Assembly (NCBI RefSeq): GCF_003966335.1
Contig: NZ_CP034549.1
Location: 1,110,001 to 1,142,000, forward strand
From: Nonlabens ponticola
GTDB taxonomy: Bacteria > Bacteroidota > Bacteroidia > Flavobacteriales > Flavobacteriaceae
Direction of reading: 5' to 3'
DNA length: 32,000 nt
The first letter of the stretch is position 1. Each line of letters starts with the position of its first letter. The notes beneath the pieces were generated by a model. The model ran no database searches, was not told where the DNA came from, and was given only the letters and a program-made list of their open reading frames with translations. Both the position numbers and the translations under genes were made by a program. Below, one piece after another: positions 4,484 through 31,698 of this stretch.

Positions 4484-7400
4484 ATGAAATTTACATTATC
4501 GCTTTTTTTCCTTATTTCATGGGCTTTTGCCTTAGGTCAGTCACATTCTTACCAGTTGGATTGGCAAGATTCTCAAACGCTTGCCGTCGGGCAATCGACG
4601 ATCACCGTGCCGGCTTTCAAGGATCATTTGGTTTATGAAAATGGGAATATCTTATTCTCTGATATTTTATCGATAAACGGTAGCATTGATCCATTATCGG
4701 CACGTTTAAGCAATTTGCAGACTGAAATTATCTCGAGAGCAGACTTGCAAGATCTCGATGAGAGCAATCTTCCCGTGAGTCCCAATTTGATTGTTGGGAA
4801 TGCGCTTTCGCGAAAGCGTAACTACATACAAATACAATTGCATCCTATATATAGGAGTAATGGCAACATCTATCGGGTAACTTCTTTTACGGCAAATTAC
4901 AGTATGGCAACCGCGACGGCGGCTCCTAAGAATACTACCTTGACTAATTCTATTCTTGCTAGCGGTGATTGGTATCGTTTTAAAGTGGAGCAAACAGGCG
5001 TACATCGTATAACACAAGGTTTTCTTTCAAGTTTAGGTATGGATGTCGATAATATAGATCCACGTAATTTGAAAATTTATGGACAAGGCGGCACATCACT
5101 ACCTTTAACTAATGAGGATAATCGATTTTATGATCCTGCGGAAATTGCCATACGGGTCAATGGTAGTGCTGATGGGTCTCTAGATAGCGGTGATGAAGTG
5201 CTGTTTTATGCAGTCGCAAGCGATACAGAATTTATTGAGGACAACGATAGTTTTATCAATCCTTATGACGATGATACATACTACTACATAACCGCTAGTG
5301 GTGGCGCGGGAAAACGGATTGCCGCTTTTAACCAACCAACACAAGCGCCAACGGTTACTTATACTTCTTATGAAGTGGTTAAACATGTGGAGACTGATGA
5401 ACGTAACATTGGTCAGATAGGTCGATTATGGTATGGTGAACGTTTTAGTATTGAGCCCGAGCAAAGTTTTACGCTGCAATTTGATAATGTTCTTGCTTCC
5501 AGGCCTGCAAGGTTGCGAATCACAACTGGAGCTATAAGCGATATACGTACCAGCATGTCTTTTTCAATTAATGGACAGTCGTTAGGTGTGACTAGTTATA
5601 CTGGGCTGTCTAACGATAACATATCAGTCGCTAGACGCAACACACTGATCAATAATACAGATGTCAACTTGACCAGCGATGAAGCGGTCGTGACCTTGTC
5701 TTATGATAACGCAGGAAATCCTGGTGCGCAGGCATATCTGGATTATATCCGCATTGATGCATATCAGGAGCTTACTGGCATAGGTAAGCAATTCAAATTC
5801 TATGTGCCTGAAAGTGCGGTGCGATCTGGTGTTGCTCAATATGCTGTGAGTAATGCCAGTGAGATAAGTGCTGCATGGGATATCACCGATAGGTTCAATA
5901 TTAGGAGCATAGAGAATATTGACAATGCTGCGCAATTCAATTTTAATGCGCCACAAGGAAGTTTACGCACCTATCAAGCCGTTGTACCAAGTGATTATCA
6001 TAGTCCAGTATTACCACAAGATGCCCGTGTAGGTAATCAAAACCTCAAAGGGACGATTTTTAACAATAGTGGTGGCTCATTTGTAGATATTGATTACTTG
6101 ATTATCACACCTGATTTTTTACAGAATCAAGCCCAACGACTGGCTAATTATCACATACGTGACGGTAATCTCAATACTAAGGTTGTCTTGCTACAAGATA
6201 TTTACAACGAGTTTTCAGAAGGCAAGCAGGACATAAGTGCGATCAGGAATTTTGTTAAGTACGTCTATGACAATGCATCAGATCCATCAAGAAGGGTTCA
6301 ATATCTCAATATGTTTGGAGATACGAGCTTTGATTATAAGGACAGGATTGCTGTCAAGGATAATATTGTACCATCATTTTTGTCTGCTAACAGCACCTCT
6401 ACGGTAGGATCTTATTGCACAGACGATTTCTTTACGTACATGGATCCCGAAGAAGGAACAGGCGCAACCAATAATCTTATGGACATCGCCGTAGGTCGAA
6501 TGATTGTATCGACCCAGCAAGAGGCTAGAGAAATGGTAGATAAGATCGTAAGCTACACGGCAAGACCAGCGTTTGAACGCTGGCGCAATGATGTTACCTT
6601 GATAGGTGATGACGTCGATATTCCTAGTGATGATATTTTGCAGGAAAGTGTGAATCAGTTAGCAGACGATATTACCGAGAATCGACCAGATTACAATGTA
6701 CGCAAAATACTTCTAGATAGTTATGATCAGGTGAGTACTGCTGGTGGTGAGCGCTATCCAGACGCTGTGGATGATATACGTAATGCGTTTGAGCAAGGAT
6801 CACTGGTAATCAATTACTTTGGTCATGGTAATGAAGATGGATTGTCGCAAGAATTTGTGGTCACGCAGTCCCTAGTCCGCAATTTGCGCAATGCTAATAC
6901 GTTGCCGTTGTTTATTACGGTAACCTGCGAGTTCACCCGTTATGATAATCCGTTAAGAACAAGTGGTGGCGAGATTACCTACCTCAATCCTCAAGGTGGT
7001 GCAATATCGCTTGTGGCAACTAACAGACTTATCTTCATCAGTGTTGGTGTTACTTTAAATGATACTCTAGATCAATACCTCTTTGGGTTCAATAATGTTG
7101 AACCTATCTCGATGGCCGAGGCACTTAGGCTCGCTAAAACCGATCCAGCACTTGCAAGAAATGGCACACGTCGAGTGGTTGCGTTTATTGGTGATCCAGC
7201 ATTAAAACTAGCATTTCCATCACCAAGAGTAGCCCTAACGGCAATTAATGGGCAGCCTATCGTCACTGCAAACGATCAGCCACAATTAAGAGCACTTGAT
7301 CGAGCTACCGTATCTGGTGAGGTGCAAGATCTTTCGGGTAGATTGATCCCAGATTATAATGGTACGGTGTCGGTAACCTTATTTGATAAACCAATAGATC

Positions 7401-10146: not shown

Positions 10147-10160
10147 GCTTTCGCGAAAGC
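10147..10160. repeat. Iterated palindrome, copy 2 (intergenic, 24 nt upstream of the pdhA ATG)
   Basis: Read directly. The 5' flank is GTTAC. Confidence 0.95.
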
Positions 10161-11185: not shown

Positions 11186-12940
11186 ATGGCAGAGATTATA
11201 AACATGCCGCGATTGAGCGACACGATGGAAGAAGGTGTTGTAGCATCATGGCTCAAGAAAGTAGGCGATAAGGTAGAAGAAGGTGATATCCTTGCGGAAA
11301 TTGAGACCGATAAAGCCACAATGGAGTTTGAGTCGTTCTATGAAGGAACGTTATTGCATATAGGTGTTCAAGAAGGTGAGACTGCTCCTGTAGATCAACT
11401 ACTTGCGATTATAGGTGAAGAAGGCGAAGATGTACAAGCTTTGCTAGACGGCAATGCTGGCGGCGATGACGATAAGAAAGAAGATAAAAAAGACGAGAAG
11501 TCAGACAACAAAGAATCTAATAGCAATGATTCTGAAGAGGATAATTCAGACGATTCAGAAGACTCAAGTTCAGATTCAGACTCAAGTTCCGCTGATCTTC
11601 CTGATGGTGTAGAAATCATTACCATGCCGCGATTGAGCGACACGATGGAAGAAGGTACGGTTGCTTCATGGCTCAAAAAAGAAGGAGATAAGGTTGAAGA
11701 AGGCGATATTCTTGCCGAAATTGAGACCGACAAGGCAACCATGGAGTTTGAATCATTCCACGAGGGTACATTGTTAAAAATCGGTATTCAAGAAGGTGAG
11801 ACTGCTGCGGTAGATAGTTTACTAGCCGTCATAGGCCCGGAAGGAACAGATGTTTCCAGTATCGATATGAAATCATCAGGTTCATCATCTAACAGTAAAA
11901 AGTCTGAGAAGAAAACTGACTCTGAAGCTGAGGACAAAAAATCGGACGATAAAAAAGAAGAAGAAAAAAAGAGTTCTTCAAGTACAAAAGCAACGGCAGA
12001 TTCTAAACCAGCATCTACACCAGCATATGGTGATGTGCAATCGCAAAGTCATCCAGATGCATCTGGTGCTGGCAGTGATGGTGAACGCATTTTTGCATCA
12101 CCGCTTGCCAAGAAAATGGCAAAGGATAAAGGTATAAACCTATCCAATGTAAAAGGTTCTGGTGAAAACGGTCGTATTACCAAAAAAGACATTGTAAACT
12201 TCAAGCCTGGTAGCGCACCAGCAGCTGGTCAAGCACAAGCATTTGAAGCCGTAGGCACTGAGACTTGGGAAGAAGTTCCTAACTCACAAATGCGTAAGAC
12301 GATTGCAAAGCGCCTAGGTGAATCAAAATTCAAAGCACCGCATTACTATCTAGGTCTAGATTTAGATATGGACAATGCTATTGCAAGCCGCAAGGCCATC
12401 AATGAATTACCTGATACTAAGATCAGTTTTAACGACATGGTGATCAAGGCAGCAGCCATGGCACTGCGCAAACACCCTAAGGTCAATACATCATGGACTG
12501 ATAAAGCTATTAGGATGGCAAAGCACATCCATATAGGTGTTGCCGTGGCGGTTGAAGATGGTTTGCTGGTTCCAGTATTACCGTTTGCAGATCAAATGAG
12601 CATGCAACAAATAGGTGGTAAGGTCAAGGAACTCGCTGGTAAGGCACGTTCTAAAAAGCTGCAACCTAAAGAAATGGAAGGCAGCACGTTTACTATTTCT
12701 AACCTGGGAATGTTTGGTATTACAGAGTTCACCTCTATTATCAATCAGCCTAACAGTGCGATAATGTCAGTAGGTGCCATTGTACAAAAGCCAGTTGTCA
12801 AGGATGGACAGATCGTTATAGGTAATGTGATGAAGATTACACTTGCCTGCGATCACCGTACCGTTGATGGTGCAACCGGTGCCGCATTCCTGCAAACGTT
12901 CAAAGCCTATATCGAGAATCCTATCGTGATGTACGTATAG
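11186..12940 (+). CDS. pdhC: Dihydrolipoamide acetyltransferase (E2) of the pyruvate dehydrogenase complex, with two lipoyl domains
   Basis: Two copies of MPRLSDTMEEG...AEIETDKATMEFES (lipoyl-lysine motif), a peripheral subunit-binding domain (ASPLAKKMAKDKGINLSNVKGSG) and a catalytic domain ending in DHRTVDGA. Confidence 0.9.
   Translation: MAEIINMPRLSDTMEEGVVASWLKKVGDKVEEGDILAEIETDKATMEFESFYEGTLLHIGVQEGETAPVDQLLAIIGEEGEDVQALLDGNAGGDDDKKEDKKDEKSDNKESNSNDSEEDNSDDSEDSSSDSDSSSADLPDGVEIITMPRLSDTMEEGTVASWLKKEGDKVEEGDILAEIETDKATMEFESFHEGTLLKIGIQEGETAAVDSLLAVIGPEGTDVSSIDMKSSGSSSNSKKSEKKTDSEAEDKKSDDKKEEEKKSSSSTKATADSKPASTPAYGDVQSQSHPDASGAGSDGERIFASPLAKKMAKDKGINLSNVKGSGENGRITKKDIVNFKPGSAPAAGQAQAFEAVGTETWEEVPNSQMRKTIAKRLGESKFKAPHYYLGLDLDMDNAIASRKAINELPDTKISFNDMVIKAAAMALRKHPKVNTSWTDKAIRMAKHIHIGVAVAVEDGLLVPVLPFADQMSMQQIGGKVKELAGKARSKKLQPKEMEGSTFTISNLGMFGITEFTSIINQPNSAIMSVGAIVQKPVVKDGQIVIGNVMKITLACDHRTVDGATGAAFLQTFKAYIENPIVMYV
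11195..11433 (+). repeat. Lipoyl-domain repeat unit 1
   Basis: Tandem in-frame duplicate of 11615-11853, offset exactly 420 nt. It includes a 33-nt identical run (11204-11236 = 11624-11656). Confidence 0.85.
11615..11853 (+). repeat. Lipoyl-domain repeat unit 2
   Basis: See unit 1. Nucleotide similarity is high by eye across the whole domain. Confidence 0.85.
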
Positions 12941-14037: not shown

Positions 14038-14713
14038 AAACGTCGTTATCACAGGAACCAGTCGCGGCATTGGTTTTGAATTAGCTCAGCTATTTGCTAG
14101 CGGTGGTTATAAAGTGTTTGCGCTTTCGCGAAAGCAAAATAGCATCCAGCAACTGGACAACTCAAACATCACAGCCATTTCATGCGACCTCGCAGATGAG
14201 AGTAGCATCATTGAGTCTGTAGAGCAAATTGAAAAAACCGTTGATCAAGTCGATATTCTGATTCATAACGCAGGAATGCTAGTCAATAAACCCTTTGCAG
14301 AACTAAGCAAATCTGACTTTGTGAATTGTTATGAGGTCAACGTTTTTGGAGTAGCGCTGTTAACACAGAAGCTACTGACATTATTGCACGACGCATCGCA
14401 TGTAGTAGCCATAAGCTCTATGGGTGGTATCCAAGGTAGTGCCAAGTTCCCGGGTCTTGCAGCCTACAGCAGCGCAAAAGGTGCGGTCATAACGCTTTTT
14501 GAACTATTGGCAGAAGAATATAAAGAATCCGGTCCATCATTCAATACACTAGCTCTAGGAGCCGTACAAACCGAAATGCTTGCCGAGGCTTTCCCTGGAT
14601 ATGAAGCACCACTGCAACCTAAAGAAATGGCTCAATATATCATGGATTTTGCGCTTACTGGTACTAAGTTTTATAATGGTAAAACACTTGAGGTGAGTAG
14701 TAGTACGCCTTAA
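14030..14713 (+). CDS. SDR family oxidoreductase
   Basis: TGTSRGIG cofactor motif, NAG and the YSSAK catalytic motif. The start overlaps the M28 stop by 8 nt (ATGAGTAA). Confidence 0.85.
   Translation: MSKNVVITGTSRGIGFELAQLFASGGYKVFALSRKQNSIQQLDNSNITAISCDLADESSIIESVEQIEKTVDQVDILIHNAGMLVNKPFAELSKSDFVNCYEVNVFGVALLTQKLLTLLHDASHVVAISSMGGIQGSAKFPGLAAYSSAKGAVITLFELLAEEYKESGPSFNTLALGAVQTEMLAEAFPGYEAPLQPKEMAQYIMDFALTGTKFYNGKTLEVSSSTP
14122..14135. repeat. Iterated palindrome, copy 3 (inside the SDR gene)
   Basis: Read directly. It is read as F-A-L-S-R-K-Q. Confidence 0.95.
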
Positions 14714-16058: not shown

Positions 16059-16287
16059 TTTCCAAAAATAACTTTTATCATTCTTAATCTTAAAATTTAA
16101 GACGCGTTAGTGATTGTAGTGAAAATCCTTTTTAATGCGAGCGCAATAAGCGATCGTATCAAAAAGATTGTAGCGCAAAGTACGGCCGCAGGCAACGCCC
16201 AAATGATCACCGATCCATTCTTCAAAGCAATCGCAAATGGCTAATTTATTATACAAACGAACTCTAAAATGACTTTTTCTTAATCCT

Positions 16288-16311: not shown

Positions 16312-17415
16312 TTGATCAAGATTCACGACCTGTATTTCAAACCATTTTTATCGGCTCACGAGATACAGCAGGCTGTGGAAAACCTCGCCTATCAAATCAA
16401 CCGAGATCTCAAGGACTCACGTCCCATTTTTATAGGTGTGCTCAACGGTAGCTACATGGTGCTGGCAGATTTGACACGCAAATTCCAGGGTGACTGCGAG
16501 GTCGCGTTCTTGCGAACGAGTAGTTATGAGGGCACGCAATCTACAGGAACCATCAAACTGGATATCGAGTTGGATGTTGACCTAAAGGATAGAACGGTGA
16601 TCGTGGTAGAGGATATTGTGGATACGGGTTTGACGGTTGATATGCTTTCGCGAAAGCTGAATTCCCACCAGCCTGCAGCACTACACATTGCGACCCTATT
16701 TCTCAAACCAGATGTGTACAAGCGAGACTTTAAAATCGATTATGTAGGACAGAATATCGAGAACAAATTTGTCGTGGGATACGGCATGGATTATAATAAC
16801 TTAGGGCGCAACCTGCCCGAACTTTATGTACAAACTTCACGCATGAAAAACATTGTATTATTTGGCCCACCAGGTGCTGGAAAGGGAACACAAGCAGAAC
16901 GTCTCAAGGATAAATACGGGCTGGTGCATATTTCTACCGGCGACGTTTTTAGATACAACATCAAGAACGAGACTGAGCTGGGAACGCTAGCAAAATCATA
17001 CATGGATAAGGGTAATCTTGTACCAGATGAGGTGACTATCAAGATGCTCAAGGCTGAAGTTGAGAAAAATCCAGAAGCTAATGGTTTTATTTTTGACGGT
17101 TTCCCACGTACTGATGCTCAAGCAAAGGCACTTGATGAATTACTACAATCGCTGGATACCGAAGTGAGCGGCATGGTCGCTCTAGAAGTTCAGGATGATG
17201 TACTGGTAGATCGTTTGCTAGAACGCGGCAAGAGTAGCGGTCGTCTTGATGATGCTAATGAAAAGGTGATTCAGGATCGTATTGCAGTCTATTACAAGCA
17301 AACGGCACCACTTAAAGAGTTCTATCAAAACCAGCGTAAATACTATGGTGTCGATGGCGTAGGTAGCGTCGATGAGATCACTGATCGATTGAGTGTGGAG
17401 TTTGATAAGCTGTAA
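16312..17415 (+). CDS. hpt-adk: Single ORF fusing hypoxanthine phosphoribosyltransferase (aa 1-177) to adenylate kinase (aa 178-367)
   Basis: The N-terminal part has the PRPP-binding VIVVEDIVDTGLT motif and ends in VGYGMDYNNLGRNLPELY. There is no stop codon before MKNIVLFGPPGAGKGTQ (ATG at 16843, in frame, offset 531 nt), which opens a complete short-lid Adk. The start codon is TTG. Confidence 0.85.
   Translation: MIKIHDLYFKPFLSAHEIQQAVENLAYQINRDLKDSRPIFIGVLNGSYMVLADLTRKFQGDCEVAFLRTSSYEGTQSTGTIKLDIELDVDLKDRTVIVVEDIVDTGLTVDMLSRKLNSHQPAALHIATLFLKPDVYKRDFKIDYVGQNIENKFVVGYGMDYNNLGRNLPELYVQTSRMKNIVLFGPPGAGKGTQAERLKDKYGLVHISTGDVFRYNIKNETELGTLAKSYMDKGNLVPDEVTIKMLKAEVEKNPEANGFIFDGFPRTDAQAKALDELLQSLDTEVSGMVALEVQDDVLVDRLLERGKSSGRLDDANEKVIQDRIAVYYKQTAPLKEFYQNQRKYYGVDGVGSVDEITDRLSVEFDKL
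16644..16657. repeat. Iterated palindrome, copy 4 (inside the hpt part of hpt-adk)
   Basis: Read directly. It is read as D-M-L-S-R-K-L. Confidence 0.95.
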
Positions 17416-18368: not shown

Positions 18369-18413
18369 TATTGCAATTTTAAGAGGTAAAAAATAAGTAG
18401 TTGCGAAAACAAC

Positions 18414-18427
18414 CGAAAACGTTTTCG
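18414..18427. promoter_or_regulatory. Perfect 14-bp palindrome CGAAAACGTTTTCG (LacI-family-operator-like), 76 nt upstream of the T9SS cargo gene
   Basis: Read directly. It has a central CG flanked by an AAAC/GTTT arrangement, and an extra half-site, GCGAAAAC, lies at 18403-18410. Confidence 0.3.
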
Positions 18428-18502
18428 TAAAACATTTAGTTCTGTTAGAGCAACTTGAGTTGATCTAGTTATTTTTAACAGAACTTTTTATTTTAATTAA
18501 TT

Positions 18503-19672
18503 ATGAAAAAACTTTTACTTTTTTGTGCATTGATATTCAGTGCAATGGCCCTGAACGCCCAGACGATTGGTATTGTGGGACCAGCTGCCAATGGATGGCC
18601 TGGTGATGACAATTCAACGCCAGATATAGAGCTTACCGACAATGGTGATGGTACACATACTATTGAAGGCTTGACGCTAAATACCGGTGCGGCAAAATTT
18701 AGAACCAACAAGAATTGGGATGAGCCTAACTATGGTGGTGATACATTCCCATCAGGAAATGTGACTGGCGGTAATATCCCTGTAGCAGCTGGCGTCTATG
18801 ATATTACGTTGGATTTAAATAGTAATACCTATACTTTTGAAGACGTCTCAACATTTACTGAGATTGAACTAGTTGGAACTGCAGATGGTGACACAGCTTT
18901 TGAAATGGCTACTACTGATGGTGTCAACTATACATTGAGCACTACTCAATTGGGTGATACTATGCTACAATTTAGAGAAGTGGGAACAACAACAACTTAC
19001 TCTTCTGCTGATTTTCCATCTGGTACTGCTACAGAAGGTGGTGAGGCGATCAATTCAACTAGTGGTTTTTACAATGTTTCATTTAATCTTGAGACTCTAG
19101 CCTATTCTTTTGATATTCCGTCTATAGGTCTAGTAGGTCCAGGCGCCGCTGGATGGCCTGGAGAAGAGAATCAGACACCAGACATCATGATGTCAAGTGA
19201 GAATGGAGATGTTTATGTGCTAGAAGATCAGGTAATTAATGATGGTGATATCAAGTTTAGACAAGATCAAGACTGGAGTGTCAATTGGGGTGGCACGGCA
19301 TTCCCAGAAGGCCCTGCAGTTTTGAACAGTGGCGATAATATTCCTGCTACTGCTGGCACTTACGATATTACCTTCTCAAGGTCTAATTCTACTTATACGT
19401 TTACATCATCAACCGCATCAAATGATGATGTAGCTTTTGCTGGTTTCAAAGTATATCCTAATCCATCAAGTGATGTATGGGTTTTTGAAAATCAAAATGA
19501 ATTGATTGCTGGAGTTTCTGTATATGATCAAACAGGTAAACTAATTTACGAGAGCGACGACAATGCATTGCGTACTCAGTTCAACGCAGGTAGTTTGAGT
19601 ACTGGATTATACATTGCTCAAGTAACACTTGCCAATGGCTCCCAAAGAGCGATACGATTGCTCAAGAAGTAA
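18503..19672 (+). CDS. Secreted T9SS cargo protein with three tandem SusE/SusF-like (carbohydrate-binding-like) domains and a type A C-terminal sorting domain
   Basis: There is a signal peptide. Repeats run IGIVGPAANGWPGDDNSTPD...KFRTNKNWDEPNYGG...YDITLDLNSNTYTF and IGLVGPGAAGWPGEENQTPD...KFRQDQDWSVNWGG...YDITFSRSNSTYTF, with a degenerate middle copy. The C-terminal FKVYPNPSSD...GLYIAQV...IRLLKK matches the T9SS CTD pattern. Confidence 0.8.
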   Translation: MKKLLLFCALIFSAMALNAQTIGIVGPAANGWPGDDNSTPDIELTDNGDGTHTIEGLTLNTGAAKFRTNKNWDEPNYGGDTFPSGNVTGGNIPVAAGVYDITLDLNSNTYTFEDVSTFTEIELVGTADGDTAFEMATTDGVNYTLSTTQLGDTMLQFREVGTTTTYSSADFPSGTATEGGEAINSTSGFYNVSFNLETLAYSFDIPSIGLVGPGAAGWPGEENQTPDIMMSSENGDVYVLEDQVINDGDIKFRQDQDWSVNWGGTAFPEGPAVLNSGDNIPATAGTYDITFSRSNSTYTFTSSTASNDDVAFAGFKVYPNPSSDVWVFENQNELIAGVSVYDQTGKLIYESDDNALRTQFNAGSLSTGLYIAQVTLANGSQRAIRLLKK

Positions 19673-20877: not shown

Positions 20878-21603
20878 ATGATTATGAAATCAATTTTACT
20901 AGTTATCGCTCTTTTTCTCACGGCAAATTTCAGCGTCGCTCAAGATTATTTAGGAACCTGGAGTTTTCAAAGTATTGATACAGCTTCTCTTGATGAAGAA
21001 ATTCCAGAAGAGACAATCACTACATTATCAGCTGTATTTCAGTTTTTGAAGGTTACTATAAATCCTGATGAAACTTTTGAGATCTCGATGATGGGTCAAT
21101 CAGACTCTGGATCGTACACCGTTGATGGTGACCAACTTTTACTAGGTCCTTCAAGTGAGAAGTTTACCGTCAAAGAAAATGGCCTTGCTCAACTACAGAT
21201 GGGAAACGCACGATTGTTATTAAGCAAAGGCGCCATTGACGTACCGGCTAAAAAATACATTCTAAAGGACGATTATGAACCTATCGCTTTTACTGCAAAA
21301 CAATTAGTCGGTAAATGGAAATCCCTAGAAGTCAAAGCTTCTGCTATTGAGGAATCGCCAGAAATGACTGAAACCATGCTAGCAACACTAGAGACGGAAT
21401 TTAACGAGGACTTTTCGGCAAGTTTTGGAGCGTTGGGATTCACCCAAGAGTTGATATGGTCTCAAGGTGATGCTGATGGTATACTGCTATTAGGTATAGA
21501 AGGATCAGAGCCAAAGACCTATGAAATTAACTTTGTAGATGAAAGTCACCTCATGATGACACTTGTCAAGACAGGAACCATCCTGTATCTAAAGAAGCAA
21601 TAA
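20878..21603 (+). CDS. Hypothetical secreted protein (lipocalin-like, internally duplicated)
   Basis: Signal peptide MKSILLVIALFLTANFSVAQ; the start may be the ATG at 20884 rather than 20878. There are two GxW(S/K) segments (YLGTWSFQS and LVGKWKSLE) typical of lipocalin-like domains. The family is uncertain. Confidence 0.55.
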   Translation: MIMKSILLVIALFLTANFSVAQDYLGTWSFQSIDTASLDEEIPEETITTLSAVFQFLKVTINPDETFEISMMGQSDSGSYTVDGDQLLLGPSSEKFTVKENGLAQLQMGNARLLLSKGAIDVPAKKYILKDDYEPIAFTAKQLVGKWKSLEVKASAIEESPEMTETMLATLETEFNEDFSASFGALGFTQELIWSQGDADGILLLGIEGSEPKTYEINFVDESHLMMTLVKTGTILYLKKQ

Positions 21604-21655: not shown

Positions 21656-21669
21656 GCTTTCGCGAAAGC
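21656..21669. repeat. Iterated palindrome, copy 5 (convergent intergenic region)
   Basis: Read directly. The perfect palindrome extends to 18 nt, ACGCTTTCGCGAAAGCGT (21654-21671). Confidence 0.95.
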
Positions 21670-21687: not shown

Positions 21688-22131
21688 CTAAACACCAAAT
21701 TGCCTAAAGTGATGATCTAGATGCTTCCACTGTAGAGTGCCCCATTGATCTTTGGTGAAGTGTCCAAATACAGGATGAGGTCGACGGTCTTCATTGTCAC
21801 GGTCGTACCACAACTCTTGCATCCATTGATCTAGCTTTTCTTTCTCGCTTGAAAAGTCATAATTGTCAGTGGCTTGAAAGACTTTAGGAGTAGGCGCATT
21901 TCTCTTAAAGGGTTTCTCGCTGTACATCATCTTTTTAAACAGCAATTTGACAATCCAGTTAGGTTTCATGTTGAACTTATCTTTCCCTAGAGCTGTTTGA
22001 ATAGGATATTGACAATGCTGAAACATTTGTGCTGCATTCATCTTTCCCCATTCTGGTTGTGCGCTAGACTCAATCTGTTGTAGTCTAGCTCTCAGTTCTT
22101 CATAGGTTTGCTGTTCAAAAAATGATTTCAT
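21688..22131 (-). CDS. DUF1569 (DinB-like) family protein
   Basis: 147-aa ORF. The pattern EWGKMNAAQMFQHC...GHF...QW..L..KHLDHHFRQFG matches my memory of DUF1569 proteins. Confidence 0.7.
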   Translation of the reverse strand: MKSFFEQQTYEELRARLQQIESSAQPEWGKMNAAQMFQHCQYPIQTALGKDKFNMKPNWIVKLLFKKMMYSEKPFKRNAPTPKVFQATDNYDFSSEKEKLDQWMQELWYDRDNEDRRPHPVFGHFTKDQWGTLQWKHLDHHFRQFGV

Positions 22132-22155: not shown

Positions 22156-22701
22156 CTACAAGTTTTTCAGGTTAGCTTTTAATTTCTTAGCCCTTTTTGC
22201 AAATTCATTAATATAGTCAACGTCCTCATCTGAATAATTTATGGAGGTTTCTAAAAGCACCGAATCCTTCAAAATCAAGTATGTGGCTTGCCATATCTTC
22301 TTTTGCTCCTTCCAAAAATTCTGTTTGATTTCACTGTAGACCAATGTGTCGTTTTTGTAGTAGTAATTCTCATAAAAATAAAGATCATCATTGCCACCGG
22401 TATACTCAACCATTGCCATCTTATGATTGTCCATGTTGAATACTTCAAGGTAAGATCCACCAGTAGGTTTATGCCAAAGAATTTTGTTCTTTCGATATTT
22501 ATGAAAAGTATGGTGAGCGTGAGAGCCTTTAATTAATTCTACAGATTTTATTGAATCCACATATTGCAAAATTTCATCAACCTCGGAATCTAGAATTGAA
22601 GATTGTGCGTAAAGAAAATATGCGTTAAATAGAAATACGAGGCATAATCCTAAAGTCTTTAAATTCAGTTCAGAGCAATATGTTTGGAGTGCTTTATTCA
22701 T
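22156..22701 (-). CDS. Hypothetical protein with an N-terminal hydrophobic segment
   Basis: 181-aa ORF overlapping the upstream NamZ-like stop by 8 nt, consistent with translational coupling. No family was recognised. Confidence 0.5.
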   Translation of the reverse strand: MNKALQTYCSELNLKTLGLCLVFLFNAYFLYAQSSILDSEVDEILQYVDSIKSVELIKGSHAHHTFHKYRKNKILWHKPTGGSYLEVFNMDNHKMAMVEYTGGNDDLYFYENYYYKNDTLVYSEIKQNFWKEQKKIWQATYLILKDSVLLETSINYSDEDVDYINEFAKRAKKLKANLKNL

Positions 22702-24019
22702 AAAGTAAATACGCTTGTCGCATCTCGTTGTATTCTTTCAATCCGTCTTGCCATGTAGATGTAATTTCTTCTGCGCTCATGCCTTTCTCTATTTGTTCTT
22801 GCAGTACGGTTGTTCCTGCCAACTTGGTAAAAAAGTCATTAAAGAAAGCTTGTTTGTAAGGCGCCTTGCTATAGGCATCGACTAGAAATTCTAATTCGAT
22901 TTTATCAAGTTTAGGATAATCACGCAAATCAACGCCAAAACATCGTTTCCCGTTAAACATTGGTCTTTTGGCACCTACATTAGGCGTTGGTGTGAATGAG
23001 AAATCACGATACTTTGCCAGCGATGGTGATCCATAAACTTGAAACTGCATGTTAGTACCACGACCTACACTAACATCAGTCCCTTCAAAGAAGCATAGGC
23101 TGGGATATAAATTGATGGATTGAGCATTGGGTAGGTTAGGCGATGGCGCGATAGGCAATTCATAGGGTAAGTCACGGTTGTAATTTTTCATGGCGATCAC
23201 CTGCAATTTGCACTGCTCGCCATAAGGCAACCATTTTTCGCCATTGATCATTCGTGCATATTCACCTATTGTCATACCATGAACCACAGGCACCGGATGC
23301 ATACCTACAAAACTCTTATGCTTAGGTTCTAGGATAGGTCCATCGATGTAATTACCATTGGGATTAGGTCTGTCAAGTACGATGAGTTGTTTTTTATTTT
23401 CTGCACAGGCTTCCATGACATAGTGCAGCGTTGAGATGTATGTATAGAATCTTGCACCTACATCTTGTATATCAAACAGGATAATATCCACATTATCTAA
23501 TTGATCTATTGTAGGTTTCTTGTTAGCACCGTAAAGGGAAATGATAGGCAAACCGCTGCGCTTGTCAATTCCATCTTCAATAGCGGCACCAGCATCTGCC
23601 GTGCCTCTAAAACCATGTTCTGGAGCAAAAACCTTGACCACATCAACGCCTCGATCCAGTAAACTATCCACTAGGTGTACATATCGTACTTGTACGTTGT
23701 CATCCCATGTAGCTCTTTCCTCGACCGTATGGCTATTAATCACGCTGGTTTGATTGCCTACAATGGCAATTCTCTTTCCTTTGAGTAGCGGCAGCCAATC
23801 ATCAACTCGATCTGCTGCTGGTACAGCAATGTTTTGGAGTGGATTGACCTTGGTGATCGACTTAGTTTGAGAAGAGACTTTAGGGTTATCGACAGCATCT
23901 TTTCCTTGGGTTTTATTTTTGTTATTGATGCTGGCATCGCAGGATTGCAGCATCACGGCCATAAGGATTATGGTATATTTGAATACTTTAAAAGAAGGAT
24001 TGAATCTAGAATATTTCAT
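22694..24019 (-). CDS. DUF1343 family protein (NamZ-like exo-beta-N-acetylmuramidase), lipoprotein
   Basis: Signal peptide with lipobox (IILMAVMLQSC). IAIVGNQTSV and VFAPEHGFRGTADAG motifs are typical of DUF1343. Confidence 0.82.
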   Translation of the reverse strand: MKYSRFNPSFKVFKYTIILMAVMLQSCDASINNKNKTQGKDAVDNPKVSSQTKSITKVNPLQNIAVPAADRVDDWLPLLKGKRIAIVGNQTSVINSHTVEERATWDDNVQVRYVHLVDSLLDRGVDVVKVFAPEHGFRGTADAGAAIEDGIDKRSGLPIISLYGANKKPTIDQLDNVDIILFDIQDVGARFYTYISTLHYVMEACAENKKQLIVLDRPNPNGNYIDGPILEPKHKSFVGMHPVPVVHGMTIGEYARMINGEKWLPYGEQCKLQVIAMKNYNRDLPYELPIAPSPNLPNAQSINLYPSLCFFEGTDVSVGRGTNMQFQVYGSPSLAKYRDFSFTPTPNVGAKRPMFNGKRCFGVDLRDYPKLDKIELEFLVDAYSKAPYKQAFFNDFFTKLAGTTVLQEQIEKGMSAEEITSTWQDGLKEYNEMRQAYLLYE

Positions 24020-25232
24020 AGCGCGTCGAGTACAAAGTAGTACCGCTTATAAAAATAGCGTAAGCGCACCGATAATTAAAATTGCCATCGCTGCAATTGC
24101 CATAGGTATGATCGTTATGATCATCGCCGTTGCCACAGGTGTTGGTCTGCAAAAAAAGATCAAGGAAAAGGTGAGTGCATTTAACGGCGACATAAGTATC
24201 TCGTTATTTGATCGCAATAACAGTATTACAACCACAAGACCTATCTCTCGTGATCAACCTTTTTACCCAGATTTTAACGAGGTGCCTGATGTGAGCCATG
24301 TGCAAGCGGTAGCTACCAAGGGCGCCATGATACGTACCGCAACAGATTTTGAGGGCGTGATTCTTAAAGGTGTTGGCACAGATTATAATTGGGATTTGTT
24401 TGATGATTTTATCATTGCGGGAACGCGCCCAGATGTAAGCCTAGAAAAAACATCTAAGGACATCCTCATATCAGATGATATCGCACGCCGGCTCAATCTC
24501 AAAGTAGGTGACAAGGCTCGCACCTATTTTATGAAACCTAATGAAGAGCCCATAGGTAGAGCATTCACCGTTTCAGGTATCTATGATAGCGGTCTTGAGG
24601 AATACGACACGAAATTCATTATCGGCGATTTGCGCAACATCCAGAAGATCAATAAGTGGCAGGATGATGAGGTCGGTAAGTTTGAAGTTTTCGTCAACGA
24701 TTTCAATGATATCGATCGGATAGGTCGTGAGGTATATCTGGAAGTACCACAACTGCTGGATGCTCGCACGATCAAGGATATGTATCCCACAATTTTTCAG
24801 TGGTTGGCATTGCTGGATGGCAATATCTACGGCATCATTGGCATCATCTTGATTGTCGGTATCATTAATATGATTACGGCGTTGCTGGTGTTAATATTGG
24901 ATCGCACAGCAATGATAGGATTGCTCAAATCGCTAGGTGCGACAGACTGGAACATCCGCAAGGTCTTTTTGTACAATGCCATGAGTTTAATTCTGCAAGG
25001 ACTTTTTTGGGGTAATTTAATAGGATTGGGATTGGTGGCAATTCAATATTTCCTGGCGCCGCTCACGTTGGATCCAGCGACCTATTATGTTTCACAAGCG
25101 CCCGTTTACATCTCTTGGTGGCATGTGTTGTTGCTCAATTTGGGTACGATCACCATTTGTCTTCTTGTATTGATCTTACCTACACTAGTCATTAGTCGCA
25201 TCTCACCAGTAAAGGCTATGCGCTTTGAATGA
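24000..25232 (+). CDS. FtsX/LolE-like ABC transporter permease
   Basis: I favour the TTG start at 24000, giving MNLEYFIARR..., which matches the usual N-terminus of this family as I recall it; the ATG at 23970 is the alternative. There is an N-terminal TM segment, a large periplasmic loop and a C-terminal FtsX domain with three TM segments. Confidence 0.78.
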   Translation: MNLEYFIARRVQSSTAYKNSVSAPIIKIAIAAIAIGMIVMIIAVATGVGLQKKIKEKVSAFNGDISISLFDRNNSITTTRPISRDQPFYPDFNEVPDVSHVQAVATKGAMIRTATDFEGVILKGVGTDYNWDLFDDFIIAGTRPDVSLEKTSKDILISDDIARRLNLKVGDKARTYFMKPNEEPIGRAFTVSGIYDSGLEEYDTKFIIGDLRNIQKINKWQDDEVGKFEVFVNDFNDIDRIGREVYLEVPQLLDARTIKDMYPTIFQWLALLDGNIYGIIGIILIVGIINMITALLVLILDRTAMIGLLKSLGATDWNIRKVFLYNAMSLILQGLFWGNLIGLGLVAIQYFLAPLTLDPATYYVSQAPVYISWWHVLLLNLGTITICLLVLILPTLVISRISPVKAMRFE

Positions 25233-25247: not shown

Positions 25248-25261
25248 GCTTTCGCGAAAGC
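25248..25261. repeat. Iterated palindrome, copy 6 (15 nt after the permease stop)
   Basis: Read directly. The flanks GTTAC...TAAC extend the inverted repeat to 25243-25265 with one bulged base. Confidence 0.95.
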
Positions 25262-26418: not shown

Positions 26419-27693
26419 ATGCAAGAAGATTTCATCCACTACTTATGGAAGTTCAAGAAATTATCTGGCCTGGCACTGCATACAACTACAGGTGACCCAA
26501 TAGTGATCAAATCACTAGGTAGCCATAATTTTCACTCAGGTCCGGACTTTTTTAATTCTAGGCTATTGATAGGTAATCAATTATGGGCTGGTAATGTAGA
26601 GATGCATATCAAGGCGAGCGACTGGTACAAGCATGGTCATGATGACGACCCTGCATATGACAACGTAATCTTGCATGTAGTGTGGAAACACGATGCCGAA
26701 ATCTCTCGTCGTGACGAGGTCAATATTCCCGTATTAGAAGTTTCTAGGTATGTTCCTGATGAACTCATTATTTCCTATACTAAGCTATTTGCTTACAAGA
26801 ACAATCAGTTCATCAATTGTGAGAAATCCATAGGTAGAGTAGATCAATTTCATGTAGATCAATGGCTTGATAAACTTTTTATTCAACGTCTAGAGCAGCG
26901 TTATCACAAGATCATTAAATCCCTTGAAATGAATAATGGCGATTGGGAATCGACATTTTTCCAGTTGCTATGTCGCAGTTTTGGTACTAAGGTCAATGCA
27001 GATGCTTTTGAGCAACTCGCCACAAGTATACCGCAATCTACATTGAGGAAACTTGCTACTGACGCTTTCAGCCTGGAAGCTGTCATGTTAGGACAAGCAG
27101 GTCTTCTTGACAAGGATCATCAAGATAATTATGCAGGAGAGCTTTTGAGGGAATACGCTTTCGCGAAAGCAAAACATCAACTACAACCTATCCACACACC
27201 ACTCAAATTTTTCAGACTGCGACCAGCCAATTATCCTACCGTGCGCATCTCGCAATTGGCGCAATTGTATCATCGGAATCCGTTGCTATTCGGAGAATTA
27301 TTATTGACAAATGATTTAGGTCAAATGAGATCATTGTTTAAGGCGAGAGCTTCTAAATATTGGGATACTCATCACGTCTTTGACAAAGAAACAACCTCTC
27401 GCGAGAAATTACTGACTGAGATTTTGATCAACCTTATAATCATCAACTGCGTCATTCCAGCCAAGTTTGCCTTCATCAAGTACCAAGGCAACAATGATTT
27501 TGAGCCTTTGCTAGAGCTGATGCGTCAATTACCCAGAGAAAAGAACACTATAGTTACAGGATACAATAAGCTTATTACTGTAAATGATGCGTTACAAAGT
27601 CAGGCAGTTTTACAATTAAAACCGAACTATTGCGATGTCAACAAATGTCTGAGTTGTGATATAGGCGTTAGACTTATGACGGCTGGCTCATAG
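26419..27693 (+). CDS. DUF2851 family protein
   Basis: The start is taken at MQEDFIHYLWKFKKL, the N-terminus I remember for DUF2851. The ORF track starts 18 nt earlier, at 26401. Confidence 0.78.
   Translation: MQEDFIHYLWKFKKLSGLALHTTTGDPIVIKSLGSHNFHSGPDFFNSRLLIGNQLWAGNVEMHIKASDWYKHGHDDDPAYDNVILHVVWKHDAEISRRDEVNIPVLEVSRYVPDELIISYTKLFAYKNNQFINCEKSIGRVDQFHVDQWLDKLFIQRLEQRYHKIIKSLEMNNGDWESTFFQLLCRSFGTKVNADAFEQLATSIPQSTLRKLATDAFSLEAVMLGQAGLLDKDHQDNYAGELLREYAFAKAKHQLQPIHTPLKFFRLRPANYPTVRISQLAQLYHRNPLLFGELLLTNDLGQMRSLFKARASKYWDTHHVFDKETTSREKLLTEILINLIIINCVIPAKFAFIKYQGNNDFEPLLELMRQLPREKNTIVTGYNKLITVNDALQSQAVLQLKPNYCDVNKCLSCDIGVRLMTAGS
27157..27170. repeat. Iterated palindrome, copy 7 (inside the DUF2851 gene)
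   Basis: Read directly. It is read as Y-A-F-A-K-A-K, a different codon phase from copies 1, 3 and 4. Confidence 0.95.
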
Positions 27694-28963: not shown

Positions 28964-28994
28964 GCCTTACATTTCATTAACAAAACTTTTATAA

Positions 28995-29026
28995 AGCAAG
29001 ATTTTTATGCATCTTGCTAGCTTTTA
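28995..29026 (+). terminator. Hairpin after the channel gene
   Basis: AGCAAGAT-TTTTATGC-ATCTTGCT, an 8-bp stem, followed by AGCTTTTA. The T-run is weak. Confidence 0.45.
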
Positions 29027-29047
29027 CAATCAAATAAGCATTATTCC

Positions 29048-30838: not shown

Positions 30839-30846
30839 TAAATGAC

Positions 30847-31698
30847 ATGAATAAATTTAAATCCCTCTTTTTGTTTCATAGGAGACAGCAAAGAGGGATT
30901 TTTGTATTAGTAATTATCCTAGTTATCCTTTTAGGATTTAAGTGGTATCAGTCGCAACAACCACTAGAGCCATTAGCGATTGTAGATAATAGCAAGTTTC
31001 AAAAGCAAGTGGATTCCTTAAAGCAAATCGCTGCTAGGAAACGTGATACGATTTATCCTTTCAATCCCAATTACATCACAGATTATCGTGGGTACAAATT
31101 AGGATTGAGTGTTCAAGAGTTGGATAGATTGTCACGCTTTCGCGAAAGCGGAGACTTCATAAACTCTACCGCACAATTCCAGCAAGTAACTCAAGTCAAT
31201 CAACAGTGGCTGGATAGCATCTCACCATACTTTAAATTTCCTGCGTGGGTTACACAGAAGAGTCAACCTAGATATTCCAATAATTATCGTGCGATAAAGG
31301 TCATGGATATCAATCGTGCAACTGCTGATGATCTCAAAAAGGTTTATGGGATAGGTCCTGCATTATCAGGACGTATCATCAAAGAACGTGAGAGATTGGG
31401 TGGATTTATAGATTTTATGCAGGTACGTGGCGTGTACGGCTTGAGTGATTCTACCATGATCAAGGTGAAGGAGAGTTTTACATTATCGCCTAAGAGCGGC
31501 TTCAAAAAAATGGCGTTAAATACGGCAACTAGCGATGAGCTGTTAAGCGTACCTTATTTCAACGACTATCTAGTTGATGCGTTACTCAAGCAAAGAGCAC
31601 TTAGAGAACGTTTTAATAACTGGGATGAGGTGATGCTTACATCACGTTTCCCACAAGAGAAATTATCACTAATACAGCTATATTTGACGCTGGATTAA
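30847..31698 (+). CDS. ComEA-like helix-hairpin-helix DNA-binding protein
   Basis: N-terminal TM segment (GIFVLVIILVILLGF). There are two HhH units (INRATADDLKKVYGIGPALSGRI and LNTATSDELLSVPYFNDYLVDAL). Confidence 0.72.
   Translation: MNKFKSLFLFHRRQQRGIFVLVIILVILLGFKWYQSQQPLEPLAIVDNSKFQKQVDSLKQIAARKRDTIYPFNPNYITDYRGYKLGLSVQELDRLSRFRESGDFINSTAQFQQVTQVNQQWLDSISPYFKFPAWVTQKSQPRYSNNYRAIKVMDINRATADDLKKVYGIGPALSGRIIKERERLGGFIDFMQVRGVYGLSDSTMIKVKESFTLSPKSGFKKMALNTATSDELLSVPYFNDYLVDALLKQRALRERFNNWDEVMLTSRFPQEKLSLIQLYLTLD
31136..31149. repeat. Iterated palindrome, copy 8 (inside the ComEA-like gene)
   Basis: Read directly. The perfect palindrome is 16 nt (31135-31150). It is read as S-R-F-R-E-S, the third codon phase. 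Confidence 0.95.

Follow-up and report, generated by a model that had tools for sequence, protein, structure and literature searches.

An invariant 14-bp palindrome at the heart of a dyad-symmetric DNA site iterated in the Nonlabens/Dokdonia lineage of the Flavobacteriaceae

A dyad-symmetric, lineage-specific DNA site of ∼52 bp has the palindrome GCTTTCGCGAAAGC as its invariant core. The site is specific to the Nonlabens/Dokdonia lineage of the Flavobacteriaceae, where it recurs once per ∼3.7–4.3 kb, and the word is common to members of the genus Nonlabens. The sites arise through point substitutions and then stay letter-perfect at orthologous positions, and we hold this description of the site as a whole with high confidence. 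As read from the sequence, the pattern is the signature of a putative two-fold symmetric, sequence-specific recognition protein together with selection or molecular drive on the DNA. By analogy with USS, DUS and HIP1, the most likely role would be that of a self-DNA tag in DNA uptake or recombination, to which we assign a probability of roughly 35–40%. Hyper-abundant genome words are rare, the main examples being USS, DUS, Chi, KOPS and HIP1, and each of these has revealed, or still hides, basic mechanisms of DNA uptake, recombination or chromosome handling. We found no description of GCTTTCGCGAAAGC in the searchable literature, and it would be the first such word that can be found described for the Bacteroidota. 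It is also unusually informative, with ∼28 bits in the core and a symmetric footprint of ∼52 bp.

The window (the whole stretch of DNA that was analysed, 32 kb) is from a Nonlabens-like flavobacterium and contains eight exact copies of GCTTTCGCGAAAGC, starting at 4804, 10147, 14122, 16644, 21656, 25248, 27157 and 31136, and all of these coordinates agree with those given in an earlier sequence-only reading. The same reading held that the copies are too many for chance, and dinucleotide shuffles of the window bear this out, with no exact copy and 0.95 matches at up to three mismatches. Scanning the window at one to three mismatches revealed no variants of GCTTTCGCGAAAGC, and every occurrence of TTCGCGAA lies within it. 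Five copies (all coordinates are given without a strand) are located in conserved genes, in the contexts previously proposed. The copy at 4804..4817 is in frame in porU (GN-ALSRK-RN, read as ALSRKR), with right flank GTAAC and a footprint at roughly 4785–4836; the true start of porU is the ATG at 4484, and the product has a signal peptide. The copy at 14122..14135 lies in an SDR gene (F-ALSRK-Q, ALSRKQ), that at 16644..16657 in the hpt part of an hpt-adk ORF (M-LSRK-L, MLSRKL), that at 27157..27170 in a DUF2851 gene (Y-AFAKA-K, AFAKAK), and that at 31136..31149 in a ComEA-like helix-hairpin-helix gene, upstream of the HHH_3 domains (S-RFRES-G, RFRESG). The three other copies are non-coding. 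One, at 10147..10160, is 23 nt upstream of the ATG of pdhA (E1 alpha) and has the left flank GTTAC; another, at 21656..21669 with flanks TTTAC and GTGAT, is in the spacer between convergent genes at 20878–21603 (+) and 21688–22131 (−), the latter a DUF1569 gene; the last, at 25248..25261, is 16 nt past the stop codon of an FtsX/MacB-like gene and upstream of a PALP gene. Since the different phases read LSRK, AFAKA and RFRES, and ∼45% of 211 non-redundant sites are non-coding, the claim that the DNA word rather than any peptide is conserved also stands.

A comparison with relatives shows that the window is not a fluke. All 15 Nonlabens-type and two Dokdonia-type loci fetched carry GCTTTCGCGAAAGC, with 81 copies in 345 kb (4–6 per 21 kb) of genome loci that are local stretches of 21–32 kb, many of them mutually orthologous and therefore not independent samples. 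No copy was found in 63 loci (1.1 Mb) from Gillisia, Gramella, Tenacibaculum, Polaribacter and other genera of the Flavobacteriaceae, nor was any comparable iterated word found in the other genera sampled. In marine metagenomes, 42 contigs bearing several sites yield one copy per 3.7 kb. Contigs that resemble prophages, with genes for portal, capsid and terminase proteins, have two to three sites per 11–12 kb, and the Nonlabens phages P12024S and P12024L have none in 35.7 kb. The word may serve as a taxonomic mark of Nonlabens/Dokdonia DNA and of their prophages in metagenomes.

Sites are spaced more evenly than expected by chance, with a coefficient of variation of 0.30 in the window (P=0.003). 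Among the genome loci only one of 63 gaps is shorter than 1 kb (13.9 expected), and the independent metagenome contigs show six of 67 (19.3 expected). Of the 211 non-redundant sites, 115 are within genes, in all three phases, and the sites are enriched ∼4-fold in non-coding DNA; many sites are 20–40 nt from a start or stop codon, and the four types of intergenic spacer have sites at equal frequency.

Conservation at orthologous positions is most evident in Hpt, where all 16 of the 16 Nonlabens-type genomes have the exact word, five third-codon positions included, while pairwise identity at the flanking third-codon positions is 0.40. Over the 198 nt compared, GCTTTCGCGAAAGC is the sole invariant run of more than two columns, and there is no indel relative to 65 orthologues that do not have it. 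The non-coding site at 10147 upstream of pdhA has an exact orthologous copy in six loci (L119, L120, L124, L125, L128 and L131). The SDR site is exact in L119, L124 and L137, has its final base changed in L120, L128 and L131, keeps the 12-mer core alone in L125, and differs by three mismatches in L121. The site following the FtsX gene (25248) is exact in L119, L124, L126 and L129 with one mismatch in L121, and the DUF2851 site is exact in L132 and present as the one-mismatch variant GCTTTTGCGAAAGC in L119. A further site, in NamZ, is missing at the orthologous position in both the window and L124. Exact forms predominate on the metagenome contigs, with a ratio of exact to one-mismatch to two-mismatch sites of 109:9:13. 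It had been proposed from Hpt that the word was written in by substitution rather than insertion, and the orthologue alignments agree: for Hpt, SDR, NamZ and DUF2851, orthologues with and without GCTTTCGCGAAAGC align gap-free, and intermediates with one to three mismatches are present, such as the NamZ series DAYSKA, DAYAKA and DAFAKA.

The sequence-only reading had similarity between copies fading at ∼5 nt from the core, and this is correct for sequence identity, but a positional and compositional signature continues for ∼19–30 nt on each side. Among 422 half-sites, the half-site reaches to about −19, with C at −1 and T at −3, −4, −7, −10 and −13, giving the consensus T..T..T..TTnC-GCTTTCGCGAAAGC-GnAA..A..A..A. 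The 5′ arm is nearly C-free, with C tolerated at −2 and −3 and excluded from −4 to −19, and is enriched 3–4.6 fold in TGTT, GTGT, GTGG and GGTG; the 3′ arm mirrors it and is nearly G-free, and on either strand the 3′ flanks are A-rich and T-poor. This signature, which makes the repeat unit larger than the 14-bp word, is present in coding and non-coding DNA alike and is absent from chance singletons of the word. No covariation was found between the two arms, and symmetric half-sites that do not covary argue for recognition by a protein rather than for base pairing. Within hpt, the 30 nt downstream of the 16644 site have moved to C-rich, G-poor codons, the 3′ flank having C and G frequencies of 0.28 and 0.08 where the word is present versus 0.11 and 0.24 in GC-matched genera without it. 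The site is strong enough to rewrite adjacent codons, and the 52-bp duplex or its single strands offer a concrete probe for the recognition protein. The ∼52-bp dyad-symmetric signature of the flanks had not been picked up previously.

The likeness to HIP1 and to uptake sequences that had been noted at the outset was upheld, in that GCTTTCGCGAAAGC belongs to one lineage, is kept at orthologous sites and has an even spacing. In common with HIP1 (GCGATCGC, cyanobacteria), it is perfectly palindromic and vastly over-represented within a single lineage, in both genes and spacers, with a possible methylation target at its centre, and both words show a non-random distribution and conservation at orthologous positions beyond neutral expectation (PMC5861425). 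HIP1 may exceed one copy per gene (PMC5861425), whereas the word described here is sparser at one per ∼4 kb, and recent work connects HIP1 with natural transformation (bioRxiv 10.1101/2024.09.10.611283). With 14–16 bp as opposed to 8 bp the present word is also far more specific, and it differs in sequence and in phylum (Bacteroidota). HIP1 has a periodicity of 10–90 kb, whereas here neighbouring sites repel at short range, and the 52-bp dyad-symmetric, strand-asymmetric flank signature of the present word is not described for HIP1. Over-representation and orthologous conservation within and between ORFs were thus both found, although neither the sequence GCGATCGC nor a cyanobacterial host, and GCTTTCGCGAAAGC is an analogue of HIP1, not HIP1 proper.

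The USS of Haemophilus and other Pasteurellaceae and the DUS of the Neisseriaceae are likewise lineage-specific words occurring in coding and non-coding DNA. They are gained by point substitution, retained at orthologous positions and spaced more evenly than random; they show an excess in non-coding DNA, and in USS weaker preferences on the flanks add to the core. GCTTTCGCGAAAGC similarly proved to be a lineage-specific word gained by substitution and spaced more evenly than random. USS and DUS are, however, non-palindromic words of 9–12 nt that are orientation-neutral solely through their presence on both strands; they occur about once per kb, and copies with one mismatch are frequent. Their uptake bias and the DUS receptor ComP have been demonstrated experimentally.

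If the site acts as a self-DNA tag, a lineage-specific competence or recombination protein would favour site-bearing DNA, and fragments with a site would be taken up or recombined more often. Near-matches would thereby be converted to perfect sites and decayed sites repaired, a process that would run until about every recombination-sized segment of ∼4 kb holds one site. Such a tag would explain why the sites are evenly spaced, why all three reading frames are tolerated and why flanking codons are reshaped, as well as why resident prophages have sites and the two isolated, independently replicating Nonlabens phages have none. Natural competence with a preference for own DNA is known from Riemerella columbina, also of the Flavobacteriales (PMC7965970), and HIP1 is both under selection (PMC5861425) and boosts natural transformation (bioRxiv 10.1101/2024.09.10.611283). 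The word opens a direct test of self-DNA discrimination in the transformation of marine Flavobacteriaceae, the question left by R. columbina, and should it indeed favour uptake or recombination, genetic tools for Nonlabens and Dokdonia could be improved with it. Counting against an uptake tag, we know of no report of competence and of no receptor in Nonlabens or Dokdonia, and the established uptake sequences, short and non-palindromic as they are, are ∼4 times denser. With its perfect palindrome of 14–16 bp and its 52-bp footprint, the site has more the appearance of an operator, a parS or a recombinase-type site. Furthermore, an uptake model would not lead one to expect that C (or G) is excluded strand-specifically over ∼16 consecutive positions or that T recurs with a 3-nt period, features that hint at contacts with single strands.

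These features bear on several other explanations. One that we consider possible, albeit somewhat unlikely, is that the site is bound by an abundant dimeric chromosomal protein (nucleoid-associated, SMC/condensin-loading, nucleoid-occlusion or topoisomerase) that organises the chromosome at a scale of ∼4 kb, each site being held by ordinary purifying selection. The perfect 14–16 bp dyad, the 22-bp palindromic consensus and the independent half-sites are as in parS, Noc and operator-type sites, the orthologous conservation and the regular spacing also speak for it, and HIP1, the closest palindromic analogue, has been proposed to act in nucleoid structure (PMC5861425). Extrapolated to a genome of a few Mb, however, the measured density amounts to about a thousand exact sites, far above that of parS-type systems. 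The sites parS (ParB), NBS (Noc), SBS (SlmA) and matS (MatP) are also conserved palindromes of 13–16 bp in genes or spacers with two-fold symmetric readers, but a genome has from a few to some tens of them, restricted to certain regions, whereas the present word occurs once per ∼4 kb on every contig sampled. The word recalls the TTTC...GAAA arms of parS and NBS, although the gap between TTTC and GAAA is 2 bp here and 4 bp there, and assignment as a parS/ParB-type site (consensus tGTTNCACGTGAAACa) was rejected on its sequence, its half-site spacing and its density of ∼1 per 4 kb on 17 loci and 42 contigs. Prophage structural genes carrying sites at host density are more easily explained by drive than by site-by-site selection, and a strand-specific flank rule over ∼16 nt is unusual for proteins that bind duplex DNA. 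Another explanation, which we find decidedly unlikely, is an element acting on single-stranded DNA, one that serves in priming (ssi-like), stops exonucleases or loads RecA in the manner of Chi. GCTTTCGCGAAAGC equals GCTTTCGC and GCGAAAGC sharing GC, such that each strand would have a d(GCGAAAGC) mini-hairpin between a C-free, GT-rich 5′ arm and a G-free 3′ arm, and as a palindrome it could function in both orientations and on both replichores. According to a review (PMC13037366), the d(GCGAAAGC) hairpin is extraordinarily stable, withstands heat and exonucleases, is poorly bound by SSB and is located where primase starts on phage G4. Both strands of the word have exactly this 8-mer at their end; it occurs once at the phage origin (G4 oric), whereas here the full dyad is chromosomal and iterated hundreds of times. 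The strand-specific base exclusion, the T at each third base (−4, −7, −10 and −13) and the GT-rich tetramers of the 5′ arm also count in favour, RecA and Chi both having a preference for GT-rich DNA. Only these GT-rich arms and the density of ∼1 per 4 kb recall Chi itself, however, and membership of that class was rejected in that the word is a 14-bp palindrome and not a short (5–8 nt), non-palindromic, strand-biased one. The predicted probability of the central hairpin is 0.77 with the real flanks and 0.57 with random genomic flanks, but this gain is explicable by the symmetric consensus alone; the nearest-neighbour hairpin is weak (−2.1 to −4.3 kcal/mol), covariation between the arms is lacking, and 74-nt elements fold no better than shuffles. 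Nor is the site a long hairpin. The half-word is only ∼1.8 times denser than in other genera (46–49 versus 26 per Mb), which fits decayed full copies and makes the full dyad the unit. We know of no precedent for sequence-specific lagging-strand priming sites on a chromosome. A bidirectional, orientation-independent Chi-like or ssi-like signal read on single strands, of a kind not previously described, is an unlikely reading. Upon opening or resection of the duplex, each strand would expose its C-free GT-rich arm, mini-hairpin and G-free arm; T at every third base would match the register of a filament with three nucleotides per subunit, such as RecA or DnaA; and the signal, kept every ∼4 kb across a bacterial genus, would either seed priming or act on self DNA that is incoming or resected, by protecting it or by loading recombinase onto it.

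It is quite improbable that the word is a by-product of restriction-modification, or of methylation and biased repair, at its central CGCG/TCGCGA, as has been proposed for HIP1, with mismatch-repair bias regenerating a site that is itself functionless. Phage P12024S does strongly avoid CGCG (nine observed versus 44 expected, observed/expected 0.21), as well as GGCC and CCGG, which suggests that its hosts restrict or methylate CGCG. This is the one hint here of a cognate orphan methyltransferase, a kind of enzyme that acts on sub-sites of HIP1-type palindromes. Host CGCG outside the word is not over-represented, though (observed/expected 0.81), and repair bias at a 4–6 bp target cannot set 14–16 exact bases and a 52-bp footprint. 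Even spacing and position-specific orthologous conservation are unexpected for a neutral mutational process, and tolerance of C at −2 and −3 with its exclusion further out is unlike a damage gradient. Action at the level of RNA, through a strand-independent transcript hairpin affecting mRNA processing, stability or translation, is very improbable. Such an element would fit the non-coding enrichment and the many sites close to start and stop codons, and with A-rich, T-poor 3′ flanks on both strands its hairpin would never resemble an intrinsic terminator. The stem, however, is exact and has no compensatory variants, all four spacer types are equal, more than half of the sites are intragenic and the predicted RNA hairpin is weak; no site matched Rfam. 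An intrinsic (rho-independent) terminator was likewise rejected on its 3′ flanks, the mostly intragenic sites and the lack of preference for convergent spacers. Insertion of a miniature mobile element (MITE, REP/REPIN or IS footprint) at many places is hardly credible, even though the word is a short repeated palindrome with a partly conserved TTAC/GTAA border; the sequence-only reading had already judged MITEs and IS footprints unlikely. Nothing is shared beyond ∼22 bp, there are no target-site duplications or terminal repeats, and coding copies leave length unchanged relative to orthologues. No transposase domain was found when 25 ORFs of the window were scanned against Pfam, three of them being without any Pfam match. 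REP/REPIN elements are extragenic, usually clustered or inverted doublets of imperfect palindromes of 20–40 nt, and are associated with RAYT (Y1 transposase), whereas the sites here are frequently in genes, single, evenly spaced and unclustered, with a perfectly palindromic core. The repeat families that were found extend over merely 28–30 nt, with 67–93% identity to the reference copy.

An exact-match search of the window recovered eight copies of the 14-bp palindrome GCTTTCGCGAAAGC, starting at 4804, 10147, 14122, 16644, 21656, 25248, 27157 and 31136, the same coordinates as in the sequence-only reading. The window holds no additional copies at one, two or three mismatches, and dinucleotide-preserving shuffles of it gave no exact copy and about one match at three or fewer mismatches. 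All eight of the window's TTCGCGAA octamers fall inside the word. Gene contexts were assigned from Pfam matches and reading-frame checks, which bear out the earlier claim that five copies lie within genes without disturbing the frame. The word is translated as ALSRK in PorU (in frame; a signal peptide follows the true start, the ATG at 4484) and in an SDR gene, as LSRK in Hpt, as AFAKA in a DUF2851 gene, and as RFRES in a ComEA-like HHH protein; an exact-protein look-up of the DUF2851 protein returned no record. The non-coding copies lie 23 nt 5' of the pdhA start, at 21656 in the spacer of two convergent genes, and 16 nt past the stop codon of an FtsX-like gene. The remainder of the window is ordinary core chromosome, with genes for coaX, a Mur ligase, a GldJ-like protein, porU/porV, cdd, pdhA, an E2 subunit, an M28 peptidase, purK, hpt-adk, obg, namZ, a PALP enzyme, a TrkA-type channel and an alanine symporter.

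Judged from local loci and metagenome contigs, the word is a genome-wide, lineage-specific feature. Using the Hpt-Adk protein as a query we collected 80 loci from species-representative genomes, the closest of which belong to Nonlabens species (75–83% amino-acid identity). The word is present in 15 of 15 Nonlabens-type loci, at 4–6 copies in each locus of ∼15–21 kb and one copy apiece in two short contigs (2.6 and 9.8 kb), and the two Dokdonia-type loci (L162 and L172) carry three and five copies. There are no copies in the remaining 63 loci, 1.1 Mb in total, which include Gillisia, Gramella/Christiangramia, Salegentibacter, Salinimicrobium, Tenacibaculum, Polaribacter, Lutibacter, Aquimarina, Mesonia, Planktosalinus and others; nor do sister genera show a comparable iterated word of their own in the sampled loci. 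A metagenome scan with the 16-mer CGCTTTCGCGAAAGCG, a selection that biases positions -1 and +1, yielded at least 42 multi-site marine contigs of 33–43% GC, with one site per 3.7 kb among the contigs listed. Because the Nonlabens and Dokdonia loci and the metagenome contigs carry the word and the 63 other loci do not, it is neither a peculiarity of this window nor an assembly artefact, and the concern that the window might be a fluke falls away.

Some related repeats were seen among these loci. The genomes closest to the word-bearing lineage without the iterated word (L135, L136 and L143) share one orthologous TCTTTCGCGAAAGC in a conserved gene, at 699, 6551 and 5816 respectively; it matches the word at 13 of 14 positions and seems to be a coding coincidence outside any iterated family. 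L143, from an uncultured Flavobacteriaceae genome, also has six tandem 153-nt repeats at 18132–18900, each containing CCCGGGTCAAA; this is a repeated coding domain, unlike the dispersed word. In the Nonlabens-type locus L130, from a MAG, the sites at 1630 and 6480 have near-identical flanks, lie 4850 nt apart and are beside two purK-like matches, which suggests either that ∼4.85 kb was duplicated locally or that the MAG is misassembled here.

Mapping of the window genes onto related loci shows that the sites occupy orthologous positions. The Hpt site is exact in 16 of 16 genomes, and a 198-nt codon alignment shows 100% identity across the columns of the word, five third-codon positions included; pairwise identity at flanking third positions is 0.40, and all other runs of invariant columns are 2 nt or shorter. 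The non-coding site upstream of pdhA is exact in seven species despite diverged flanks. At the SDR site a 12–13 nt core is kept and the outermost bases vary, with three changes in one Nonlabens-type locus (L121); the DUF2851 site of another (L119) reads GCTTTTGCGAAAGC. A site in NamZ (D-AFAKA-P) is exact in ten species and one nucleotide off in two, and in the window itself and in L124 this position reads GAT GCC TAT AGC AAG GCG (DAYSKA) or similar instead, with length unchanged. Exact, one-mismatch and two-mismatch sites occur at 109:9:13 in the metagenome contigs listed, with about half of the single mismatches at the outermost base. Hpt orthologues of 65 word-free genomes align with the Nonlabens proteins without a gap across the site. 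Given these gapless orthologues and the decay and gain of sites by point changes, the alignments argue that the sites are written by substitution rather than insertion, as had been proposed from the window alone. A mobile origin, already thought improbable, is unlikely: flank alignment and a repeat finder reveal nothing common beyond ∼22 bp, and the absence of target-site duplications, of any longer element and of insertions relative to orthologues rejects a MITE or IS footprint.

The sites are evenly spaced. Gaps in the window range from 1.9 to 5.3 kb (CV 0.30, P=0.003 against uniform placement); in the genome loci, which are partly orthologous to each other, one gap in 63 falls below 1 kb (13.9 expected), and in the independent metagenome contigs listed 6 of 67 do (19.3 ± 3.5 expected). 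Crude ORF-based calls place 115 of the 211 sites in genes and 96 outside them, in DNA that is ∼83% coding, an enrichment in spacers of ∼4-fold per base. With three reading frames used and 45% of sites non-coding, a peptide motif is ruled out, and the view that the DNA word is what is conserved holds. Spacers of the types ++, --, -+ and +- contain 23, 26, 12 and 10 sites, roughly as the types themselves occur, and the 211 sites keep no constant distance from start or stop codons, which argues against a terminator, promoter or operator role. There is also no T-run 3' of the hairpin, and an intrinsic terminator is contradicted by a 3' side that is A-rich on both strands. REP or REPIN sequences do not fit, the copies being mostly genic, single and evenly spaced; parS differs in half-site spacing and the sites are too frequent for it, and for Chi the word is too long and is palindromic.

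The recurring unit exceeds the word. Similarity between copies had been thought to fade close to the core, and there is indeed no common flanking sequence; the flanks nevertheless obey a common, two-fold symmetric compositional rule that continues for ∼20–30 nt on each side. On either strand, the ∼20–30 nt 5' of the core show C depletion with abundant T and G, and the 20–30 nt 3' of it show G depletion with abundant A and C. In a profile of 211 non-redundant sites (422 half-sites), position -1 is C in 89%, a value inflated by the 16-mer ascertainment (79–87% in an unbiased genome set), and position -2 is any base except G. T makes up 66% and 59% at -3 and -4 and peaks again at -7, -10 and -13 (50–57%). 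From -4 to -19, C is at 3–9% nearly throughout, with two positions at 12–14%, against a background of 19%. The profile recurs separately in coding sites, in non-coding sites and in each of the three reading phases. As a control, 108 single matches in viral contigs, a number at the chance level expected for a collection of that size, have flat flanks and favor no base at -1 or +1.

At the Hpt site, base fractions over the 30 nt 3' of the word are C 0.28 and G 0.08 in Nonlabens, against C 0.11 and G 0.24 for the same codons in GC-matched word-free genera. The residues encoded there have moved towards Q, H, N, P, T and K, amino acids with G-free codons, so that a constraint on the DNA reshapes the protein. 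Since this skew is confined to word-bearing genomes, it is not a pre-existing sequence context. A pure mutational footprint, such as strand-specific deamination after nicking, is contradicted by the tolerance of C at -2 and -3, the position-specific T peaks and the enrichment of G besides T; accumulation driven by repair is likewise an unlikely source of the sites. A longer hairpin or cruciform fares no better. At each k, bases -k and +k are Watson-Crick complementary just as often as the product of their marginal frequencies predicts, so the arms do not covary; the stem extends mostly 0–1 bp past the core, and 74-nt elements fold no better than shuffles. The predicted hairpin itself is weak (-2.1 kcal/mol for the 14-mer, -4.3 for the 16-mer). 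With real flanks the central hairpin is predicted to be more probable, but this gain is mostly kept when arms from different sites are re-paired and lost when arms are reversed; it thus stems from the symmetric consensus and not from selected pairing. An RNA hairpin is unlikely to be the functional form, and no known RNA family coincides with a site, the Rfam matches in the window being two tRNAs and Flavo-1. We read the site as two independent half-sites of ∼26 nt each, a symmetric footprint of ∼52 bp, and the putative target of a protein or complex with two-fold symmetry that may make strand-specific contacts.

Nine viral contigs carry 2–3 sites each, bordered by C/G and flanked by T/A arms as is typical of the site. 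Those examined encode a portal, head protease, major capsid protein and large terminase, and some of the sites lie inside protease genes. The two sequenced Nonlabens phages, P12024S and P12024L, are closely related and encode an ERF recombinase; their 35.7 kb contain no copy at two or fewer mismatches, against ∼9 predicted from host density. In this comparison, which covers one phage lineage, the enrichment is thus a property of the resident chromosome and its prophage-like passengers and not of every replicon in the host. Tetramer counts in P12024S (JQ823122; observed/expected GGCC 0/35, CCGG 2/34, CGCG 9/44) indicate classical restriction avoidance and host restriction systems with these targets, a hint that in some hosts the word's central CGCG might be methylated. 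Both P12024S and P12024L (JQ823123) encode DNA methyltransferases.

The word is thus a lineage-specific, dyad-symmetric site that arises by substitution, is maintained as a DNA sequence and recurs at even intervals. Uptake sequences of Haemophilus and Neisseria (USS and DUS) arise by substitution, are retained at orthologous positions, are evenly spaced and enriched in non-coding DNA, tolerate all reading frames, have weaker flank preferences, and are present in prophages and absent from an independent phage. The word shows the same combination of properties, and the resemblance to HIP1, the cyanobacterial highly iterated palindrome, and to USS suggested earlier is borne out by its lineage specificity, orthologous retention, even spacing and presence in both genes and spacers. 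It is a real and strong element of this kind in Bacteroidota, differing in its unusually long and perfect core and its extended symmetric footprint. It is apparently undescribed: the searchable full-text literature gave no description of the 14-mer, nothing relevant on iterated palindromes in Bacteroidetes or Dokdonia, and only unrelated matches to TTCGCGAA.

We infer a cognate symmetric recognition protein acting together with either selection or molecular drive. The reading we favor, at a probability of roughly 0.35–0.4, is that the word may be a self-DNA tag that, by analogy with USS and DUS, would be recognized in DNA uptake or recombination. It is favored because of the shared property set, because the palindromic analogue HIP1 is under selection (PMC5861425) and is reported to raise transformation efficiency (bioRxiv 10.1101/2024.09.10.611283), and because natural competence with a preference for own DNA is known within the Flavobacteriales, from Riemerella columbina (PMC7965970). 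The host-level density in prophage structural genes also fits drive more easily than site-by-site selection. The main rival, that the word is the site of a chromosome-architecture protein, is less probable. Recognition as single strands, with RecA or DprA, a primase or a nuclease as possible readers, is improbable and still deserves attention: the word consists of GCTTTCGC and GCGAAAGC overlapping by GC, placing d(GCGAAAGC) on each strand, and this oligomer forms an extraordinarily stable, exonuclease-resistant mini-hairpin that binds SSB poorly and occurs at the phage G4 primase start (PMC13037366). Strand-specific base exclusion, T at every third base, and GT-rich 5' arms in which TGTT, GTGT, GTGG and GGTG are enriched 3–4.6 fold would suit such recognition. 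However, the 8-mer alone is not iterated (its density is only ∼1.8 times that of other genera), and thermodynamic models give no special structure. Both the recognition protein and the proposed role of the word as a self-DNA tag in uptake or recombination are directly testable, which makes them of high interest.

Several other features of the window were noted. Two tRNA genes lie on the minus strand at 1012–1086 and 1142–1214, and a Flavo-1 RNA motif (Rfam RF01705; 42.6 bits, gathering score 42) is at 16096–16191 on the plus strand, in the spacer between purK and hpt-adk. The hpt and adk genes form a single uninterrupted ORF of 367 aa (16312–17415, plus strand; Pribosyltran 15–161, ADK 183–341), and since residues 1–367 match as one segment by tblastn in ∼80 Flavobacteriaceae loci, the fusion, or a junction lacking a stop, is apparently common to the family. 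A 19-nt exact repeat, CTGCAACCTAAAGAAATGG, is present at 12659–12677 and 14612–14630 in the unrelated E2 acyltransferase and SDR genes; both copies are in frame and encode LQPKEM, with a chance expectation of ∼0.002 in 32 kb. Within the E2 gene, a 243-nt direct repeat with 79% identity (11191–11433 and 11611–11853) corresponds to two lipoyl domains, an ordinary domain duplication. The divergent ORFs of NamZ (22694–24019, minus strand) and the FtsX/MacB-like protein (23919–25232, plus strand) overlap by ∼100 nt at their 5' ends, as they do in related loci, and the TTG start called for the FtsX/MacB-like gene probably lies upstream of the real start.
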